Assembly (NCBI GenBank): GCA_965232515.1
Contig: CBDDPY010000002.1
Span: 2,432,001 to 2,496,000, forward strand
Direction of reading: 5' to 3'
Source of the DNA: Alphaproteobacteria bacterium
Lineage (GTDB): Bacteria > Pseudomonadota > Alphaproteobacteria > GCA-2731375
Length of the DNA: 64,000 nucleotides
Made by a program: the position numbers and the translations under genes. Each line of letters opens with the position of its first letter. Within the stretch, counting starts at the first letter, position 1. The notes beneath the pieces are model-generated. The model made no database searches. It was not told the DNA's origin and was given only the letters and a program-made list of their open reading frames with translations. Shown here piece by piece: positions 34,794 to 49,426 of the stretch.

Positions 34794-36407
34794 TCAGTTG
34801 AAGGCGCTGTTCGGCATGCCCAACAGATAGCCCTGCGCGTAGTCGACGCCCAGCTTGTTGACGAACTGCAACTGTTCCTTGGTCTCGATGCATTCGGCGA
34901 TGGTCTGCATGCGCAGATCCTTGCTGACCCCAACCATGGCCTTCAGGATCGCCGCGTCACGCGGCCGGTTCAGCACCTTCTGCACATAGACGCCATCGAT
35001 CTTCACGAAATCGACCGCCAATGCCTGCAGATACTGGAACGAGGCCGCGCCGGCGCCGAAATCGTCGAGGCAGACCCGGTGGCCGTCCCGACGGAAGTCC
35101 TGGATGATGTTGTTGGCCTGCACCAGATCGTCGATCTTGCTGGTCTCGGTCACCTCCAGCAGCAGGTTCCGGCGTAACTGCCCGATCCGCGCTAGCATGG
35201 CCCGCAGGTTGGTGATGAAGACCTCGTTGACCAGCGAGCGGCCCGACAGGTTGACCGAAAGCCGCAGAGCCGTGCCGTGAGCGTCCTGCTCTTGCATCAG
35301 CCGGATCACGCGCGCGCAGACCGCCAGATCCAGGTCGTGGATCAGGCCGACGTCCTCGGCAAACGTGATGACCTTCAGCGTGTCTTTCTCATCGGGAAAA
35401 CGCGACAACACCTCGTAATGGTGCACATTGCCGTCGCGCAGGCTGTAGATGCCCTGGAAAACGAACTGGAACTCGCTACGCGCCAATGTCGTCTTCAGCG
35501 CGTTCACGCGATCCTTGGTGTTGCTTAAAAGCTGATCCAGGCCGTCGGAGAGCGACTTGATCGAGAATTCCGACGTGGTGTCCGCGAACTGATTGATGGC
35601 GTAGACCAGGATCTGACCGGCGTCGACGTCGCTGATCGCTTCTTCCGAGGTCAGGTCGAGCGTGCTGCCCTGAAAGCCGATGCCGTCGCCCGAGGGGTCG
35701 ATGCTTTTCGACAGTTGATGGATGGTCTGCGAGACCTCATCCAGATCGACCGAGCTGTCGTGGACAAATCCGTATTTCTCGTCGTCCAGGCGGCCGACGG
35801 AGTCGCCGCCATACGATTCCGATCTCAGATAGGCGCCGATGTCGGCGAGCATATCGCTTCGCGTCGCGTCGTCGACCTGGCTCGACAGCCGGTCGAGGCC
35901 GTCAAGCTGCAGCAGCGTCAGCTTGGTGTCGAGGCGCTAGTCGGCGGCGACCCGGGCTAATTCGCCGGCGATCTGCGCAAAATCTTCCTTGCCCAGCGTG
36001 CCCGTTTCGGGATCGCGGACCGCCTCGGCGTTGCGTTCGATATTGGGCGACTTGGCGACCGACAGGGTGACGAAATAGCGCTCGCTGTCGGCCGGCAACC
36101 GGCAGGCCCCGAGCCAGACCGCGACGCCGGTCGCCGCCATGTGCACGATGGTCGGCGCCAGCCGGTGCTGGCGGCCGAGCCGCGCGATCAGGTGCTTCAG
36201 GAAGTGACTGTCCTGGACGCCGACCATCTCAAGCAGCGAGATGCCGATCAGGCCCTCGGCCTCGCAGTCGGCAAGCAGTCGGCTGGCGCCGGACGCGAAC
36301 GTGATCGTCAACCGTTGGTCGAGCTCCAGCAGCAGGTCCGCCGCCGCGAAAGAGAACCCGACAAATCGATTGCGTTCGCGCTGAAGTCCGACCCCCAGCT
36401 CACCCAT
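34794..36407 (-). pseudogene. PAS-like/degenerate GGDEF/EAL phosphodiesterase gene interrupted by one in-frame TAG at 35937-35939
   Basis: ORFs 35937..36407 and 34794..35852 share a frame and are joined by 28 sense codons (RLDTKLTLLQLDGLDRLSSQVDDATRSD). EAL motifs HYEVLSRF, LDDFGAG, IAECIET, AQGYL are intact. Confidence 0.8.
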
Positions 36408-36639: not shown

Positions 36640-36843
36640 ATGAACCACACAACCTCTCTAAACATGAGAAAATCTTCGTTTCACGATATCCTTGAGGGGG
36701 CAGTGCAGCAATTCGCCGTCTGGCGCGAACGCGCCCGCGAGCGCAAGCTTCTGGCGCAATTGTCGGATCGCGAGCTGCGGGACATTCGCCTGAACCGCCA
36801 GCAGGCCGAGATAGAAGCCGGCAAGCCGTTCTGGAAACCCTGA
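36640..36843 (+). CDS. DUF1127 family small protein
   Basis: WRERARERKLLAQLSDRELRDIRLNR...EAGKPFWK. Confidence 0.9.
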   Translation: MNHTTSLNMRKSSFHDILEGAVQQFAVWRERARERKLLAQLSDRELRDIRLNRQQAEIEAGKPFWKP

Positions 36844-37000: not shown

Positions 37001-37432
37001 ATGTACGTAGACTCCATTCTGAAGCACAAGGGCCAGGACGTCGTGAGCGCCGGCCCCACGGATGAAATCGTCGAGACGGCCCGGCTGCTTAACCGGCACC
37101 GGATCGGCGCGGTTGTCGTGCGCGGTGCCGACGGCCAGGTGGTCGGGATCCTGTCGGAGCGCGACATCGTCCGCGGTGTCGCCGAAAAAGGTCCGGCCTG
37201 CCTCTCGCTCAAGGTGGCCGATCTCATGACCCGAGAGGTCGTGAGCTGCCGCCCGAACGACAGCATCGACGACATCATGGCGCTGATGACCGAACGGCGT
37301 ATCCGGCATTTGCCGGTGATGCAGGACGGCACGGTTATCGGCGTGATCTCTATCGGCGACGTGGTCAAACGGCGCATCGCCGAGATCGAGTCGGAGGCCT
37401 CCTCCCTGCGGGAGTATATCGCCACGGGCTGA
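37001..37432 (+). CDS. CBS domain pair protein
   Basis: VDSILKHKG, GILSERDIVR, MTERRIRHLPV, ISIGDVVK. Confidence 0.93.
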   Translation: MYVDSILKHKGQDVVSAGPTDEIVETARLLNRHRIGAVVVRGADGQVVGILSERDIVRGVAEKGPACLSLKVADLMTREVVSCRPNDSIDDIMALMTERRIRHLPVMQDGTVIGVISIGDVVKRRIAEIESEASSLREYIATG

Positions 37433-37529
37433 CCATGCGCGCGCGGCGGGCCGGCGGCCTTCCGCCGGCGCCGTACCGCATCGGCCGGAACTCCGGTCCG
37501 GCCCGCCCGGCGCTAAAAATCGGCCATTT

Positions 37530-37545
37530 TGTGAACGCGATCACA
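37530..37545 (+). promoter_or_regulatory. Perfect CRP-type box TGTGA-ACGCGA-TCACA
   Basis: 10/10 match to TGTGA-N6-TCACA, 57 bp before the ATG at 37603. Confidence 0.7.
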
Positions 37546-37602
37546 GCGTCGCGGGGGTCCGCGCGGCACCTTGCCGCTCGCACAACGCTGGGAGATGTCA
37601 CG

Positions 37603-37707
37603 ATGTCGTCACTGCAGGGACGCAACCGCAAAACCTTGTTCGCGCTCGTGGGATCGCTGTGGGTCGCCTCCGTCGGCGGCCTCATCTGCTTGTTCGTTTT
37701 CGCCTGA
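37603..37707 (+). CDS. 34-aa single-TM peptide A
   Basis: GGAG RBS; MSSLQGRNRKTLFALVGSLWVASVGGLICLFVFA; basic N-terminus then one TM helix; similar peptide at 38211. Confidence 0.65.
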   Translation: MSSLQGRNRKTLFALVGSLWVASVGGLICLFVFA

Positions 37708-37748
37708 ACGATCCGGATGTCAGCCGCCCGCGCGGCGATGGACCGTGC

Positions 37749-37931
37749 TCAGGCGAACCAATCGAACAGCGGCAGCAACACGCCGATCAGGGCGCCCCAA
37801 CCGACAATTGAGGCCACAATCCATACCAACATGGCGCGGCGCATCGAGATCTGGGCGTCATGCGCCCGGCTGGCTCGCGACGCCGTCGGCAGGGACGGCC
37901 GATCAATCGAGATCTGAGAGGAGTTCGTAAT
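37749..37931 (-). CDS. Small C-terminally anchored membrane peptide (31-60 aa)
   Basis: ...ISMRRAMLVWIVASIVGWGALIGVLLPLFDWFA. GGGAG lies 7 nt before an ATT at 37931; alternative ATG at 37844. Confidence 0.5.
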   Translation of the reverse strand: MTNSSQISIDRPSLPTASRASRAHDAQISMRRAMLVWIVASIVGWGALIGVLLPLFDWFA

Positions 37932-38032
37932 CGTCTCTCTCCCACGTCTGGTTCCGACAATTGTCGCCCGGCGAGCCTTAACGGAACGTAAAGACCGCGA
38001 CGGCCACAAAGGCGGACCGGCAGGCCGTGGAT

Positions 38033-38160
38033 TGTCTCAGATTGAGAATGGCGCATCGGCGGCTGTTCCAAATCAGGTCAATCTTGCGCGACCCGAGACA
38101 GCACATCTTTTCCTAAACCGTTGAAATAATTGCGAAACGCAAGTTGGCATATAACCTGCT
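38033..38160 (+). promoter_or_regulatory. Sigma54 promoter with enhancer-like sites and IHF-like site
   Basis: TTGGCATATAACCTGCT (38144-38160) has exact GG-N10-GC spacing; minus-strand TTTCAACGGTTTA (38114-38126) is IHF-like; 17-bp sites related to TGTCTCA-N3-TGAGACA start at 38033, 38064 and 38084. Confidence 0.65.
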
Positions 38161-38210
38161 TCAACATCTGCGTTGTTTACTAGTAACCGCGTAATCGGAC
38201 GGAGGGCGTC

Positions 38211-38318
38211 TTGCGCAATCTTTCTTCCACCCAACGAGGCATGCTTATCGCCGTATTCAGCGCGCTTTGGCTGATGTCGTGCACGGGTCTCGTCTACTGG
38301 TCCTATCTGGTCCACTAA
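38211..38318 (+). CDS. 35-aa single-TM peptide B (absent from ORF track)
   Basis: GGAGGG RBS, TTG start; MRNLSSTQRGMLIAVFSALWLMSCTGLVYWSYLVH; 10 of 34 positions identical to peptide A without gaps. Confidence 0.65.
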   Translation: MRNLSSTQRGMLIAVFSALWLMSCTGLVYWSYLVH

Positions 38319-38531
38319 AGCTCGTATCGGCTTGGTCGTCACACCTACCGCCGGTTCCGCATCCGACAACGATTAGTTCAGACTTTTCCCCCATGTTAGG
38401 GGATCGGCCGCAGAAGCGGACCTCCACGTATCCACGAAAAGGCAACGCGCCGGGCACGGCGCCGCGCAAAGCTTCGGACCGGGATCGCCATCAATTGCCC
38501 CGGTCGGCGGAGCTGCCGAATGGAGACGACA

Positions 38532-38726
38532 ATGGAAATTAGTCCCAACAATCCCAGTCCTTCCCAGGGCCTGAAGCTTCCCGCCGCCACCGAGCAACGT
38601 ACGGCCGAAGCGCCGGAACGTAATGCCGAACGCGACCGCCGAGAGGTGGACGAGACCTCGCGCGAGCGCATTCAGCGCTCGGACGCCGGTCCCGGCGTCG
38701 GCCGCCGGGTCGATTTCGAGGTCTGA
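38532..38726 (+). CDS. Small hydrophilic protein with C-terminal GxGxxVDxxV motif
   Basis: GGAG RBS; low-complexity body ending GVGRRVDFEV. Confidence 0.6.
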   Translation: MEISPNNPSPSQGLKLPAATEQRTAEAPERNAERDRREVDETSRERIQRSDAGPGVGRRVDFEV

Positions 38727-38728
38727 CG

Positions 38729-39661
38729 TCAGCCGAAGATCGACAGCCCAAGCCTTTTTGACAGGAAGGCCATCACGGCCATGCCGGCGACGCTGTTGCC
38801 CTTGGGTCCAAGCGCCGGGCCGTAGCTGGCGATCGCCATGCGGCCGGGCACGACCGACAGGATGGCGCCGCTGACCGCGCTCTTCGCCGGCAGCCCCACC
38901 CGTACGGCATAGTCGCCGACCTCGTCGTAGAGACCGCAGGTGGTCATCAGCGCGACCACCGTGCGCGCGCAATCGGCATCGATGACGCGCCGGCCGCTCA
39001 CCGGATCGACCCCGGCATTCGCCATAAACAGGCCAATGCGGGCGAGACGCCGGGCCGTGACGCCGATGGCGCATTGCCGGAAGTAGGCGTCGACGGCCAG
39101 ATCGGGGTCATCGATGCGCCCATGCTGCCGCATGAAATGCGCCAGTGCCCGGTTGCGAAAGCCCGTTGCCGCCTCTGACCGGTAAACCGCTTCATCCACC
39201 GCAAACGGGGTCTGATCGCAGATCTCCGCCAGGAACGCCTGCAGCGCCGCCACCTTGGCGGCGGCGTCGGCGCCCGGCAGCAGCCCGCTGACCAGGATCG
39301 CGCCGGCATTGATATAGGGGTTTCGCGGCCGGCCGCGCTCCTCCTCCAGGCGGACGATGGAATGAAAGGCATCGCCGCTCGGCTCCACCGAGACGTGATC
39401 GAACACGGCCATGCCGTGCGACTGCATGGCGCAGGCGAGTGCGAAGACCTTGCCCGCGCTCTGCAGCGTGAATGGCGTGTCCGCGTCGCCAACGGCATGG
39501 CAGGCGCCGTCGAGCGTGCAGATCGCGATGCCCAGTTCCGCCGGATCGGCCTTTGCCAGCTCGGGAATATAGTGCGCGACCCGTCCATCGCCTGTCCGCG
39601 CCAGGCCAAGCCGGTGCGCTTCCGCAAGGATCGCGTCGAGGTCGTCGGTCGCGTCAGCCAT
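38729..39661 (-). CDS. glsA: Glutaminase A
   Basis: YIPELAKAD, FTLQSAGK (SxxK), EPSGDAF, RNPYINAGA, TCGLYD, GLPAKSAVSG, GPKGNSVAG. Confidence 0.95.
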   Translation of the reverse strand: MADATDDLDAILAEAHRLGLARTGDGRVAHYIPELAKADPAELGIAICTLDGACHAVGDADTPFTLQSAGKVFALACAMQSHGMAVFDHVSVEPSGDAFHSIVRLEEERGRPRNPYINAGAILVSGLLPGADAAAKVAALQAFLAEICDQTPFAVDEAVYRSEAATGFRNRALAHFMRQHGRIDDPDLAVDAYFRQCAIGVTARRLARIGLFMANAGVDPVSGRRVIDADCARTVVALMTTCGLYDEVGDYAVRVGLPAKSAVSGAILSVVPGRMAIASYGPALGPKGNSVAGMAVMAFLSKRLGLSIFG

Positions 39662-40613: not shown

Positions 40614-43100
40614 TCAGGCGGTGCTCATATTCTCGCCCAGCCGCTCGCGCGCGACCCGCTCGATAACCTCGCAAAGCTCGGGATCGACGTCCAGCAACTT
40701 ACGAAAGTCCTGCACGTACAGCACCAGCAGATCGCAGAAGCCCAGCGCCTTGACGTCGGCCACCCGCGGCATTTCGGTCAACAGGGCAATCTCGCCGAAC
40801 AGATCGCCGCTGCCGAGCTGCACCGGCTCGGACAGCGCCACTTCCACGGCGCCGTTGGAGATGAAATACATGGCGTCGCCGACATCGCCCTTCCGCATGA
40901 TCAGCTCGCCCGGCAGCGCCAGGCGCGGCTTCAGCAGGCCGACGATCTCGGCGATGCGCTCGGCCGGCAGGTCGCGGAAGAACGGCACCTTGGCGACCAG
41001 CTTCTCCGGCTCCAGCCCGAGATCGAGCCGCGGCAGCTCGGCCAGCTCGTGCGCCCGCGCCTCGACCTCGCGCTCGAGGTCGTCATAGACCTCGTTGTTG
41101 ATGACGGACTCCTCCAGCATGGCGTGGTAGTCCGCCTCCTCCAGGCGCAGCGCGATACGGACCAGGTGGCATTCCTGCAAACGCCGGGCATAGTCGGGAT
41201 ATTGCAACCGCAAGGCGGCGAGCGCCGTTTCCGTCGCCGCCATGCGGTTCTGCACCAACTGCCGCAGGGTCGCGCCGGTGGTCTCGCCCAGCATCGTCGC
41301 GACGCGCGGCAGACCTCGGTTCAGGACCTCGCGCAGCACGCTCTGTTTTTCCAGCAAGACTTCAAATCGCTCGGCAATGCGCATGGCGAGCGGCCCCTGC
41401 CGGCCGAACCGGCGATGCAGCTGCAGCGCCAGCTTGAAGCCGGCCTCGAAGCCGAGATTGCGCCGCACCGCCGCCTCGTAGCCGGCGACGCCACGGGCCT
41501 TCAGCCCATCGAGCGCGTCATCCACGTGCACCAGCAACAACCGCGTGATTTCCGGCTCGATGAAGCCCTCGGCGAAGTGATGCAGATAGATCTTGCGTTC
41601 CTGATTGGCCAGCGTCGCCAGGCCGGTGCGCACGCGGTCGGCCTCCGACATGCCTTGCAGCTGATCGGCCGAGGCTTCGACTTCGGCGACGCGGTCACGG
41701 TACTGCCGCACGACATTCTCGGCCAGATCGGGATCGACCTCCTGCTCGCCGGCCGCCTTCTCGATGCTCTCGCCGATCTTGGCGAGCGACAGCGCCATCG
41801 CCCGGTTGCGGATCGCCAGATCCGCCGGCGACAGCTTGTCGAGACCGAACATCGCCAGCACAGGGCGCATGGTCGTCGCGTTGACGAACAGCGTGAACAG
41901 CACGAAGCCGGTCACCAACACGCCGATGAAGCGCTGGATCTCGGGCGCGATCGCGGCGTTTTCCATGACCGCCAGCGCCAGCGCCAGCGAGACCGCCCCG
42001 CGCAGGCCGCCCCAGAACATCACCGTCTTGAACGCCATGTCGACCCGCTGGCCGAGGCGCACCCGACGCATCAGCGGGATCAGGCCGTAGATCACCACGG
42101 CCCGCGCGGCAAAGGCAGTGACGATCACCAGGCCGACGAGCAGAAACTCGCGGCCGCTGATGTCGGCCATGATGCTGGGCACGGCCAGGCCGACCAGCAC
42201 GAAGATCAGCGAATTGGCCCAGAAACCGATCTGCTCCCAGGTCTCGGTCAGTATATGCCAGGTGTTGGGCGAGATCGTGGTGCGGCCATAGGAGCCGACG
42301 ACCAATGCCGCCACGACAACCGCGACGACGCCGGAGACGTGGAGATAGTGCTCGGCGATGATGAAGGTCAGATACGCGAGGCTGATGGTCAGCGTCACCT
42401 CGACCAGCGGCACGTCGCGCAGGCGCGCGATCACCGCGCAGACCGCCCGCGCGCAGAGATAGCCAACGACACCGCCGCCGACGAAGACCTTGATAAAGGT
42501 CAGGCTGCCGGACAGCACGCCCGTGTCCTCGGCGCCCAGCAGCATCGCCGCCAGGATCGTGAACATGACGATGGCGGTCGCGTCGTTGAACAGGCTCTCG
42601 CCCTCGACCAGGATCGCGAGGCGCTTCGGGGCGCCCAGATCCTTGAAGATCGCCACCACCGCGACCGGATCCGTCGCGGAGACGATGGCGCCCAGCAGCA
42701 GGCAGGCGATGAGGCCGACGCCCGCGACGGCGTGCAGCGTGTAGCCGACGACGAAGGTCGAAATCAGCAACCCGGCCACGGCCAGGAACAGGATCGGCCC
42801 GATATCGTCCAGCAGACGCCGCACGTCGATCGCCAGCGCCGCCTCGAACACCAACGCGGGCAGGAACACGAACAGCACCGCGTCGGACGTAATCTCGAAA
42901 CCTTTGAGGGCGCCCAGGAAATCGCCGACCGGACCGACCTGCACCGCCTCGCCCAGCAGCGAAACCGCGCCCAGGACACAGCCGACCACCGCCAGCAGAA
43001 CCGTGTAGGGAAAGTTCAGCCGTCGCGCCGCCGGCAGCATCAGAACGGCCAGCGCCAGCAACCCGGCCAGCCCCAACACCGTCGCCCACAACTCCCCCAT
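40614..43100 (-). CDS. CPA1 Na+/H+ antiporter with C-terminal cyclic nucleotide-binding domain
   Basis: FLPALVFEAA, SATDPVAV, EGESLFNDA, GGLRGAVSLAL; CNBD GDAMYFI...FGEIALLTEMPRVADV. Confidence 0.93.
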   Translation of the reverse strand: MGELWATVLGLAGLLALAVLMLPAARRLNFPYTVLLAVVGCVLGAVSLLGEAVQVGPVGDFLGALKGFEITSDAVLFVFLPALVFEAALAIDVRRLLDDIGPILFLAVAGLLISTFVVGYTLHAVAGVGLIACLLLGAIVSATDPVAVVAIFKDLGAPKRLAILVEGESLFNDATAIVMFTILAAMLLGAEDTGVLSGSLTFIKVFVGGGVVGYLCARAVCAVIARLRDVPLVEVTLTISLAYLTFIIAEHYLHVSGVVAVVVAALVVGSYGRTTISPNTWHILTETWEQIGFWANSLIFVLVGLAVPSIMADISGREFLLVGLVIVTAFAARAVVIYGLIPLMRRVRLGQRVDMAFKTVMFWGGLRGAVSLALALAVMENAAIAPEIQRFIGVLVTGFVLFTLFVNATTMRPVLAMFGLDKLSPADLAIRNRAMALSLAKIGESIEKAAGEQEVDPDLAENVVRQYRDRVAEVEASADQLQGMSEADRVRTGLATLANQERKIYLHHFAEGFIEPEITRLLLVHVDDALDGLKARGVAGYEAAVRRNLGFEAGFKLALQLHRRFGRQGPLAMRIAERFEVLLEKQSVLREVLNRGLPRVATMLGETTGATLRQLVQNRMAATETALAALRLQYPDYARRLQECHLVRIALRLEEADYHAMLEESVINNEVYDDLEREVEARAHELAELPRLDLGLEPEKLVAKVPFFRDLPAERIAEIVGLLKPRLALPGELIMRKGDVGDAMYFISNGAVEVALSEPVQLGSGDLFGEIALLTEMPRVADVKALGFCDLLVLYVQDFRKLLDVDPELCEVIERVARERLGENMSTA

Positions 43101-46526: not shown

Positions 46527-49238
46527 CTACTTCTCCGTCATCGTCCAGACGCCGTCCCAGTCCGGCCCGGGCGGGTGCGCGCGGTAATAGTCGCAGCGGT
46601 CGAGATAGATCTGCGAGGGCTGATCGTCGGGACTGGCCGAAAGCGCGGCGCGGAAACAGCCGGCGGCGGCGTCCCAATCGCCGGCGCGGTATTTCGACAG
46701 CCCATTTGTATAGGCCTCCAGCACCTCCGGCAGGCGCGGGAACGTCTCGTCGGTGTGATAGTCCAGCGCCTCGAACACGGCGACCGGCTCGTCCTTGCCC
46801 TTGACCCGGATCAGATCGATCTCGCGCATCAGCGCGCCGTTGTTCATGTCGCGCACCGTATGCTCGCTCAGCAGAATGCCGCAGCCGTAATACTTGGTCG
46901 CCGATTCCAGCCGCGCCGCCAGGTTCACGCTGTCGCCGATGACCGTGTATTCCATGCGCCGCGGCGAACCGATGCTGCCGGCCACGACGACGCCGGTGCT
47001 GATGCCGATGCCGATGCGGATCGGCGCCCGGTTGTTGGCCGCCCGCCGCGCGTTCAGCGTGCGCAGCGCGATCATCATGTCGTTCGCCGTGCGCACCGCG
47101 TCGTCGGCGTCGTGCGGGCCGTCGAACGGCGCGCCGAACAGCGCCATGATCGCGTCGCCGATGTATTTGTCCAGGATGCCGCCGTGCTGAAAGATGGCGT
47201 CGACCATCTCGGCGAAATACTCGTTCAGCATGGCCACGGTCTCGCGCGCGCCGAGCGATTCCGAAGACGAGGTAAAGCCGCGCACGTCGGAGAACAGGAT
47301 CGAGACCTTCTGATCCTTGCCGCCCAGCTCCGCCTCGCCGCCGGCCAGGAGCTGATCGGCGACCTCCTTGCTCATGTAGCGCGCCATGGTCGTCTTCACG
47401 CGCTTCTCGGATGTGATGTCCTCGATGATCAGCATCGAGCCGATATGCTCATGCTCGAGGCCGATCAGCGGCACCACGGTCAGGTTCATGGACTTGGTCT
47501 CGGCGTCCGCCAGCACGAAGTCGGCATCGACCGAAATATCCTCCTGGCCGGTGTCTTCGACCCGGTCGAGGCTGTCCAGGATCCAGGCGTTGGCGTCCCG
47601 GCAGAGTTCGTCGGCCGTGCGGCCGACCAGTGCCTCCTGCGCCAGCCCGACAAGGCGGCAGGCGGCCTCGTTGACGGTGACGACCCGGCGCTCGTTGTCG
47701 AGCGTGATCAGGCCGTTGCTGGTACTCTCGATAATGCTCTCGTTGTAATTCTTGATCGTCAGCACGTCATCGAACAGCTGCGCGTTCTCCAGCGACATGG
47801 CGATCTGCGCCGTGAACGCCCTGAGTCTCGCCTCGTCTTTCAGCGTGAAGTCGCCGCGGCGCTTGTTCAGCACCTGCGTGACGCCGATGCGGTGGCCGGT
47901 CTTGCTGGCGATCGGCATGCACAACAGGCTGCGCGTGACGAAACCGGTCTGCTGGTCGAAGTCGGGGTTGAAGCGGGGATCGGCGTAGGGGGTCGAGGTA
48001 TTGACGGTCTCGCCGCTGCTGAACACCGCGCCGGCGATGCCGGCGTCGGCCGGGAAGCGGATCTCCTTGTTCTCCAGCCCTTCCGCCACCCGCGACCACA
48101 GCTCGTCGGTCTTGGCGTCGAACACGAACAGCGTGCTGCGCTCGGCATCCAGCAGGTCGGTGGTCGCGCCCATGATCCGGCCCAGCAGCGCGTCGAGCTG
48201 CAGCTCGCCCGAGAGATCGTGCGAGACCTCGAGAATGCGCGCTTCGTCGCGCAGGCCCTCGACCATCAGATTGAAGCCGCGAAACAGGTCGGCGTATTCG
48301 TCGGTGCCCGAGACGCTCAGTTCGGTGTCCAGCTCGCCGTGCTCGACCTTGTGCATGGCGATCGCCAGTTCGGCCGCCGAGCGCGACATCTCGTTCGCCG
48401 TCAGCACCGACATGGCCAGCGCGCCGCCCATGCAGACCAGCACGACGCCGGCGATCCACATCCACAACGGCATCATCATCTCCGCCGTCGCCTCGATGCC
48501 GAGGTCGGCGATCAACAGGTCGATCTTGAAAATCACCGAGGCGGCGAAGAACAGAAGCGGCAGCGCGGCGACGAATACCGACAGGTACATCAGCTTGTTG
48601 CTGAGCTTGATCGATATCAGGTCGTCCTGGTCCGCCCGCTCCAGCCCCTCGCAATAGGGCCAGAGTTGCTGCACCAGGCCGGATGCGCGGCGCGAGATGG
48701 CGAAGAACTCGAAAATGGCGTGCGTCGGCGAGGCGAAGATCAGGATCGTCGCGCCCAGGATCCAGACCTGCCAGGGCTGATAGCCGGTGCCGACGGCGAC
48801 GTTCAGCACGAACATCGCCAGCACCAGCAGGATGGCCGCGGCCGGGCCATGGAAGAACGTCACGCGGATGAACGAATAAAACGGCAGGTTCAGCGTGCGG
48901 GCGATCGCCTTCGACACCTCGGCATTGGGCGGCGTTTCGCCGCGCGCCAGCCGCGTCAGCACCGTCCCGATCGGCGCGTGGTGCCGGGCGATGATGTAGA
49001 TGTCGCCGATGACGTAGATCGCGACGATGACCGGCGTCACGACCAGCAGATAGGCCAGCTGACCGAGCGTCAGTTCCAGGCCGAGCAGCACCAGCAACAG
49101 CGTCACCGCGACAGCCGCGAGCGAGCCCTTGACGTAGATCCAGACCAGATCCCGCAACGTGCCGCCGGCCGTTTTGGCCACGGTCGCGGCACCATCGTCG
49201 GATGCGCGGTGTACGGTCTTGTCGACCATATCGACCAT
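46527..49238 (-). CDS. Class III adenylate cyclase with TM, HAMP, GAF and PAS domains
   Basis: SILFSDVRGFT, DKYIGDAIMALFG, EYTVIGDSVNLAARLES; GAF DQQTGFVTRSLLCMP; C-terminal DWDGVW. Confidence 0.93.
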   Translation of the reverse strand: MVDMVDKTVHRASDDGAATVAKTAGGTLRDLVWIYVKGSLAAVAVTLLLVLLGLELTLGQLAYLLVVTPVIVAIYVIGDIYIIARHHAPIGTVLTRLARGETPPNAEVSKAIARTLNLPFYSFIRVTFFHGPAAAILLVLAMFVLNVAVGTGYQPWQVWILGATILIFASPTHAIFEFFAISRRASGLVQQLWPYCEGLERADQDDLISIKLSNKLMYLSVFVAALPLLFFAASVIFKIDLLIADLGIEATAEMMMPLWMWIAGVVLVCMGGALAMSVLTANEMSRSAAELAIAMHKVEHGELDTELSVSGTDEYADLFRGFNLMVEGLRDEARILEVSHDLSGELQLDALLGRIMGATTDLLDAERSTLFVFDAKTDELWSRVAEGLENKEIRFPADAGIAGAVFSSGETVNTSTPYADPRFNPDFDQQTGFVTRSLLCMPIASKTGHRIGVTQVLNKRRGDFTLKDEARLRAFTAQIAMSLENAQLFDDVLTIKNYNESIIESTSNGLITLDNERRVVTVNEAACRLVGLAQEALVGRTADELCRDANAWILDSLDRVEDTGQEDISVDADFVLADAETKSMNLTVVPLIGLEHEHIGSMLIIEDITSEKRVKTTMARYMSKEVADQLLAGGEAELGGKDQKVSILFSDVRGFTSSSESLGARETVAMLNEYFAEMVDAIFQHGGILDKYIGDAIMALFGAPFDGPHDADDAVRTANDMMIALRTLNARRAANNRAPIRIGIGISTGVVVAGSIGSPRRMEYTVIGDSVNLAARLESATKYYGCGILLSEHTVRDMNNGALMREIDLIRVKGKDEPVAVFEALDYHTDETFPRLPEVLEAYTNGLSKYRAGDWDAAAGCFRAALSASPDDQPSQIYLDRCDYYRAHPPGPDWDGVWTMTEK

Positions 49239-49410
49239 CGCGAATTCGCCCTTGGTATGAGCCACCGGCCCGGCCGGTGTCCCAACTCTGTCGGTTGCTA
49301 GCCCCCCTCATGGGCGACCGCCATGAGGCGCTGATATGGCGTCATAACGCGCGACGAATATTTGACCATATCGCCGCAGACAGGTCTACGCGACGGCACG
49401 CGCCGATGAC

Positions 49411-49426
49411 TGTGAAGCGTGTCACG
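49411..49426. promoter_or_regulatory. CRP-like box TGTGA-AGCGTG-TCACG upstream of the adenylate cyclase
   Basis: 9/10 match to TGTGA-N6-TCACA. Confidence 0.5.

Follow-up and report, generated by a model that had tools for sequence, protein, structure and literature searches.

The stretch of alphaproteobacterial DNA analysed here, a window of 64 kb, contains between the gene for a CBS-pair sensor protein and glsA a gap of about 1.3 kb, in which a small open reading frame (ORF) encodes a membrane peptide of 34 amino acids (aa), peptide A, that is very probably the product of a real protein-coding gene. About 500 bases away lies a second ORF, for the 35-aa peptide B, which its sequence features make a plausible but unproven gene and a candidate diverged copy of A. 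An earlier note on this DNA had described the two as paralogous members of an undescribed family of small membrane proteins placed under two different types of global promoter; both ORFs are indeed present with the lengths, positions and sequences that it gave. The explanation developed below, in which A is genuine, B is an old diverged copy and both are single-pass accessory or modulator peptides restricted to one lineage, is offered tentatively, as a whole that falls a little short of an even chance. Three features define the locus of A (nt, nucleotides).

37603-37707, plus strand: peptide A, 34 aa, ATG start, with basic residues at the N-terminus (R7, R9, K10), then a membrane helix extending as far as the C-terminus.
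37591-37594, plus strand: Shine-Dalgarno core GGAG, 8 nt 5' of the ATG of A.
37530-37545, plus strand: perfect CRP-type palindrome TGTGA-N6-TCACA, TGTGAACGCGATCACA, intergenic, with its centre about 65 nt 5' of the ATG of A.

When the protein collections were queried with the longer ORF that contains A, the exact peptide was found there already as a predicted protein, and the 90 % cluster to which it belongs comprises four more variants, 34-35 aa long. Conservation was judged from these protein variants and not from DNA: the five differ only at residues 2-8 and by a single substitution, V16F, which is the one change among 104 comparisons over residues 9-34, and the reading frame of A is conserved in relatives. 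Proteins encoded nearby in these relatives are less conserved, with identities of 91 % for glsA, 91 % for ORF68 (6 of 68 residues differ) and 94.4 % for PAS-EAL. Contigs of equal size, the only basis for this comparison, suggest that the gene order around A is conserved there as well (4182 base pairs (bp) for glsA and ORF68; 11936 and 9695 bp for PAS-EAL). The G+C content at third codon positions (GC3) of A is 0.83 in frame vs 0.50-0.53 off frame, real genes having values of 0.83-0.90, and a GGAG core such as the one in front of A precedes, at a distance of 4-10 nt, only 1.6 % of the window's 4,679 start-like triplets; the earlier note was right in giving Shine-Dalgarno sites to both peptides. 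The codon score of A weighs somewhat against a gene, since it is intermediate, with 6.6 % of the 151 null ORFs scoring as high, in a test of low power at this length. A 90-aa upstream extension of A was rejected: it has a non-coding composition (G+C content at second codon positions (GC2) 0.68, codon log-odds -0.17) and is absent from the protein collection.

AlphaFold2 models A as one helix spanning residues 4-33 (predicted local distance difference test score 82.8), and its best 17-residue stretch has a mean Kyte-Doolittle hydropathy of 2.17, within a range of 2.08-2.22 across A, B and a third mini-ORF, C, of the same gap. Small residues recur at every fourth position (A14, S18, A22, G26), and the C-terminus, FVFA, carries no charged residue. 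Peptide A is a small membrane protein confined to close relatives within one narrow lineage. Directly 3' of the stop codon of the CBS gene, an inverted repeat of 16 nt with 88 % complementarity and 43 nt between its arms (37439-37513) is probably a terminator-like hairpin setting A apart from CBS.

The perfect TGTGA-N6-TCACA box that the earlier note had seen in front of A is confirmed, and TGTGAACGCGATCACA is the only perfect match in the 64 kb. At no more than one mismatch there are 2 such boxes in the window vs 0.70 expected, both in intergenic promoter regions. The second, TGTGAAGCGTGTCACG (49411-49426, plus strand, one mismatch), lies 146-161 bp upstream of a gene for a HAMP-GAF-PAS adenylate/guanylate cyclase (46527-49265, minus strand), a position that hints at feedback control of cyclic-nucleotide synthesis. 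An 828-aa Na+/H+ antiporter of the CPA1 type with a C-terminal cyclic-nucleotide-binding domain is encoded 3 kb away (40614-43100, minus strand). Because both boxes are intergenic, a cyclase gene stands behind the second and a cyclic-nucleotide-binding antiporter is encoded nearby, a CRP-family site at A is credible, and the box, a putative site defined by its sequence, looks functional. Against this, no CRP-family regulator was recognised among the window ORFs scanned. The FNR/FixK-type box TTGA-N6-TCAA was considered as well and has 0 matches in the window.

For peptide B the features are as follows.

38211-38318, plus strand: peptide B, 35 aa, TTG start, with basic residues at the N-terminus (R2, R9), then a membrane helix; a possible diverged copy of A.
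38201-38205, plus strand: strong Shine-Dalgarno site GGAGG, 5 nt 5' of the TTG of B.
38145-38160, plus strand: sigma-54-like -24/-12 element TGGCAT-N5-CTGCT, TGGCATATAACCTGCT, about 51 nt 5' of the start of B.

A and B belong to the same length class, have the same build and share the same N-terminal register. In their MAFFT alignment no internal gap interrupts residues 1-30, with identities at exactly the ten residues that the earlier note had listed (M1, L4, R9, L12, A14, L19, W20, S23, G26 and L27) and an overall identity of 29 %; two details of that alignment have to be amended, as B starts with TTG and not with ATG, and L4 is not kept in the A variant P0124. The ungapped BLOSUM62 score of the pair is 41 at offset 0, none of the other offsets between -6 and +6 giving a value above -6. 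This score was met by 0 of 5000 full shuffles and by a fraction of 0.0016 of 5000 shuffles in which the N-terminal and membrane segments were permuted separately. BLASTP of A against B, as a single comparison, yielded 21.2 bits with an expectation value (E) of 3e-5 and 10/28 identical residues, and hhalign of the five A variants against B a probability of 79.7 % (E 1.5e-5). When the window's 46 membrane-like small ORFs are compared, A finds its best match other than itself in B, and B in A, the next best scores being 27 and 23.

Two further sets served for comparison. The first was drawn from loci related through glsA: a scan of genome contigs with glsA alone had found no relative, and a profile scan with a glsA alignment retrieved 79 loci, whose best glsA identity is 66 %; in the high-GC subset (38 of the 79 fetched), a score of 41 was reached by 0 of 37 membrane-like small ORFs. 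The second comes from the gap itself.

37749-37844, minus strand: mini-ORF C, 31 aa, with basic residues at the N-terminus (R2, R3), then a membrane helix; between A and B.

Since C resembles A and B in size and composition, it provides an internal control for their likeness, and this control is negative: C has no BLASTP match to A or B and an hhalign probability of 5 %, by which its candidacy as a third paralogue was dismissed.

The likeness has to be weighed against the reading that only A is a gene, B being a chance ORF in an AT-richer regulatory stretch that resembles A by the coincidence of two hydrophobic helices; there would then be neither a paralogous pair nor sigma-54 control of a protein. 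Several observations favour that reading and weigh against ours. B has no counterpart in any protein collection searched: a word search with the 43-aa stop-to-stop frame that contains it and an exact look-up of its sequence returned nothing, and nothing resembling B came out of 1.84 billion representative proteins when B was part of the search profile. A profile built from A only and run against the 25,616 six-frame ORFs, 20 aa or longer, of the window and the 79 loci gave B 10.6 bits (E 0.52) and was outscored by a chance ORF in L043 (11.8 bits). The pair was moreover chosen after a window-wide scan, so that multiple testing applies; rescaled for B, the A-only profile corresponds to E 0.026 over the 1,300 ORFs of the window. 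Finally, A and B share no repeat or similarity at the DNA level, which excludes a recent duplication.

The composition of B is likewise divided. Its start codon is TTG, and around B and its upstream region (38000-38300) the GC content dips to about 0.50 vs 0.66 for the window, as a chance ORF would have it. Taken over its full length, the ORF has a codon log-odds of -0.05, a value that 32 % of the null ORFs attain, the first ten codons being atypical; from the internal ATG at 38241 it amounts to 0.30, reached by 4.6 %. That ATG was rejected as the start of B, as it has no usable Shine-Dalgarno site. The GGAGG in front of the TTG stands, on the other hand, at ideal spacing, and the same motif is found at 4-10 nt from only 0.3 % of the start-like triplets; GC3 is 0.69 in frame vs 0.46-0.49 off frame. 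Nor does the reading of B as a chance ORF account readily for a length and an N-terminal register equal to those of A, for the absence of any such similarity in the control peptide C, or for the pairwise probability of about 2e-5, which the A-only profile translates into E 6.5e-4 when the search is restricted to the 32 ORFs of the CBS-to-glsA gap. We consider it unlikely that B arose by chance in this way, and slightly favour the view that B is real and homologous to A, for which the sequence comparison is suggestive and not proof. The paralogy proposed earlier is accordingly favoured by the pairwise tests and the negative control, and left short by the window-wide value and by the lack of a B-like protein in the collections.

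A sigma-54 -24/-12 element was the second promoter type proposed. Such an element is present in front of B, with correct GG-N10-GC spacing and two mismatches to TGGCAC-N5-TTGCW that leave GG and GC intact; it is well placed but statistically indistinguishable from chance. Its core, TGGCATATAACCTGC (38145-38159), has 1 match in the window vs 2.88 expected, and a looser consensus 16 vs 25.6 expected, which again does not exceed chance; both counts speak against sigma-54 control and are in line with a chance origin of B. No sigma-54 activator site was recognised by eye upstream of B, and no rpoN among the window ORFs scanned. Of the two global promoter types, then, the CRP-type box is credible and the sigma-54 element is not distinguished from background. 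Two perfect 13-bp palindromes also lie upstream of B: TTGCGAAACGCAA (38130-38142) abuts the -24 element and was flagged in addition as a terminator-like hairpin of the minus strand, and TCTCAGATTGAGA (38035-38047) is found about 100 bp further upstream.

Beyond these two peptides the family does not extend far. A profile search of 1.84 billion representatives recovered only the cluster of A (81 bits) and a spurious, repetitive protein of 352 aa, with nothing outside the clade, and the 79 loci around the nearest glsA relatives (at most 66 % identity) contain no A-, B- or C-like peptide and no trace of the gene order; both results count against a widespread family. Plasmid searches, by tblastn with A and B and by blastn with the entire gap, gave chance hits or none. 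In agreement with the earlier note, which had recognised no named family, A, B and C match nothing in Pfam (E<=10), NCBIfam (E<=0.01) or PADLOC (E<=1), and a PDB search (E<=10) with the profile of the five A variants was empty. Keyword searches of the literature returned no described family of such peptides, weak evidence given that keywords cannot match sequence. The protein atlas, in which feature scores below 0.9 are calibrated as leads only, gave no score of at least 0.9 for A or B. The search for homologues in relatives has thus produced variants of A, and neither a B-like protein nor synteny at the glsA-related loci. What had been put forward as an undescribed small-protein family amounts to a real peptide A with five variants, confined to one clade and joined by no further members; for one narrow clade and one candidate copy, the word family is generous.

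The third mini-ORF deserves consideration in its own right. C is the most gene-like of the three by codon usage (log-odds 0.43, reached by 0.7 % of the null ORFs), and its GC3 is 0.78 vs 0.48-0.58 off frame. It has no Shine-Dalgarno site, and an exact look-up did not find it in the protein collection; we list it as a candidate third small membrane protein. An 86-aa extended form was discarded (GC2 of the extension 0.67, codon log-odds of the whole 86-aa ORF -0.22, absent from the protein collection). C and A converge on a common element.

37699-37757, no strand assigned: perfect 9-bp inverted repeat TTCGCCTGA / TCAGGCGAA, spanning the stop codons of the convergent A and C.

Both peptides end in F-A-stop, and their last nine bases are the two arms of this perfect inverted repeat. 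A GC-rich hairpin lies between the arms, whose bases pair in the minimum-energy fold, and no T-run follows the repeat on either strand; it is a possible two-way terminator.

This arrangement bears on the idea that A and B, with C perhaps as a third, are membrane peptides like the type I toxins, held in check by overlapping or antisense RNA and depolarising the membrane when in excess. Small hydrophobic ORFs repeated in one long intergenic gap, partly unannotated and of very narrow distribution, would fit such an idea, and type I toxins have been discovered by means of such traits (Fozo 2010, in the available text of PMC2887945). The convergence of A and C, with both stop codons inside one inverted repeat, would fit it too. 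In txpA/ratA and bsrG/SR4 of Bacillus, the toxin and antitoxin RNAs overlap at their 3' ends. Both systems are named in the part of PMC12648545 available to us. The terminator-like hairpin of the minus strand (38142-38130) could end an RNA antisense to B, and B closes with bulky aromatic residues (YWSYLVH). A, on the contrary, has no charged or polar C-terminal cluster, only B being aromatic there, and at 29 % identity A and B fall below the 50 % cut-off of the tandem-repeat screen, as given in the available text of PMC2887945. A structured RNA over A, B or C was looked for and rejected: the fold z-scores of the candidate mRNAs (0.43, 1.15 and -1.0) are not unusual, and there is no Rfam match over any of the three. 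Both Shine-Dalgarno sites are canonical and no structure that would sequester them was identified; no mobile-element neighbours occur among the window ORFs scanned and PADLOC gave no match. On this evidence a toxin function is improbable.

Downstream of B, at 38432-38521 on the plus strand, a riboswitch-like aptamer of the c-di-GMP-I-GGC type (cyclic di-GMP) scores 36.6 bits against a gathering threshold of 59 (E 2e-6 in 2.2 kb, full model 1-80). It ends exactly at the start of ORF68 (38520-38726, plus strand), which encodes a highly charged protein of 68 aa that belongs to no family, is 91 % conserved in two relatives and has a second ATG (38532) with GGAG 6 nt upstream. One may ask whether B is an upstream ORF in a long leader that runs through this element into ORF68, its translation and not its peptide being what matters. 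B, the aptamer and ORF68 all lie on the plus strand, no terminator-like site of that strand separates them, and no sigma-70-like promoter was found in 37300-38800. Set against this are the 113 nt between the stop codon of B and the aptamer, and the fact that the likeness to A and the membrane-helix build would have to be coincidental. Riboswitches, furthermore, usually sit close to the transcript start. We regard a leader ORF as hardly probable at all.

Returning to the reading of A as a genuine membrane protein and of B as its diverged copy, a mechanism can be outlined as follows. A would be a 34-aa single-pass protein of the inner membrane, whose basic N-terminus, by the positive-inside rule, points to a cytoplasmic location and whose helix would reach the periplasmic face and stop there without a tail. 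B, similar to A in build, probably goes back to an old tandem duplication and has since diverged; it would be translated from its TTG behind the strong ribosome-binding site. Their size precludes an enzyme, and the shared helix residues (L12, A14, L19, W20, S23, G26, L27) together with the spacing of small residues in A argue for helix packing, so both peptides may pack helix to helix in the membrane and serve a larger membrane protein as accessory or modulator subunits. By analogy with known small proteins, we give this modulator mechanism an even chance, provided that both peptides are real. Each peptide would have a promoter of its own, that of A bearing a site for a CRP-family, cyclic-nucleotide-responsive regulator, and that of B having the sigma-54 element as a candidate.

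A bolder version, which we consider very improbable, takes the gap as a signalling island in which A, C and B, three membrane micro-proteins, are each wired to a different signal. A would answer to cyclic nucleotides through the CRP-type box and B to a sigma-54 activator, being perhaps co-transcribed with ORF68, and the peptides would modulate at least one membrane target in common, such as the nearby antiporter with the cyclic-nucleotide-binding domain. Genes flanking the cluster encode a PAS-EAL c-di-GMP phosphodiesterase, a DUF1127 small protein and the CBS-pair sensor protein. The first of these (34794-36407, minus strand) is a single 537-aa protein in relatives; here it is broken by an in-frame TAG (35937-35939) where the relatives have Gln, the rest being one frame at 94.4 % identity, and it is annotated as separate ORFs of 156 aa and 352 aa. 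The protein of the relative P0139 (174 aa) is likewise truncated nearby. The TAG could be a nonsense mutation, the mark of a pseudogene or a sequencing error. The DUF1127 protein (67 aa, 36640-36843, plus strand, upstream of the CBS gene; 37.4 bits in Pfam against a cut-off of 23.3) has an exact sequence that is absent from the protein collection. Proteins of this type have reportedly been tied to the kinase PhoR in Agrobacterium in a recent study.

Small membrane proteins are under-annotated, and most of the known examples are enteric. As a conserved peptide of 34 aa behind a clean CRP-type site, A would offer a tractable example from an alphaproteobacterial lineage that has been poorly sampled, and a diverged copy under other control, if true, could show micro-proteins linking global signals to membrane function. 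The value of the case is limited by its restriction to one narrow clade, by the unverified status of B and by a target and phenotype that are not inferable.

Several known systems invite comparison. Type I toxins duplicated within one intergenic region, such as Ibs/Sib, Ldr/Rdl and ZorO/ZorP (described in the available text of PMC2887945), resemble the present locus in their short hydrophobic ORFs, present in 2-3 copies per long intergenic gap, partly unannotated and narrowly distributed. The locus described here differs from them in that no antitoxin RNA was found (Rfam, folds), the copies are 29 % identical with no DNA repeat, A has no charged or bulky cluster at its C-terminus, and the leader folds are ordinary. 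CydX and its homologues illustrate how small membrane subunits keep their structure and role while sequence similarity weakens (PMC12648545, in the part available); proteins of the CydX type are encoded with their oxidase, whereas here no oxidase or partner operon was seen among the window ORFs scanned. YncL (PF28073) and the SGM_5486-like transporter-associated peptide (PF28099) are also 31-38 aa long with one membrane helix, and the feature scores of the protein atlas, leads only by the calibration given above, are 0.82 for B vs YncL and 0.84 for A vs SGM_5486, the Pfam scan at E<=10 giving no family. AcrZ and MgrB each have their own promoter under a global regulator. Together with KdpF, they are small single-helix proteins that act by binding larger membrane proteins (PMC12648545, same part). 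A and B differ from these three in having no sequence similarity to them (Pfam, NCBIfam) and no operon partner gene, and in their restriction to one narrow clade; they are like KdpF (29 aa), AcrZ (49 aa) and MgrB in having no conceivable enzymatic function, in size class and in their single membrane helix.

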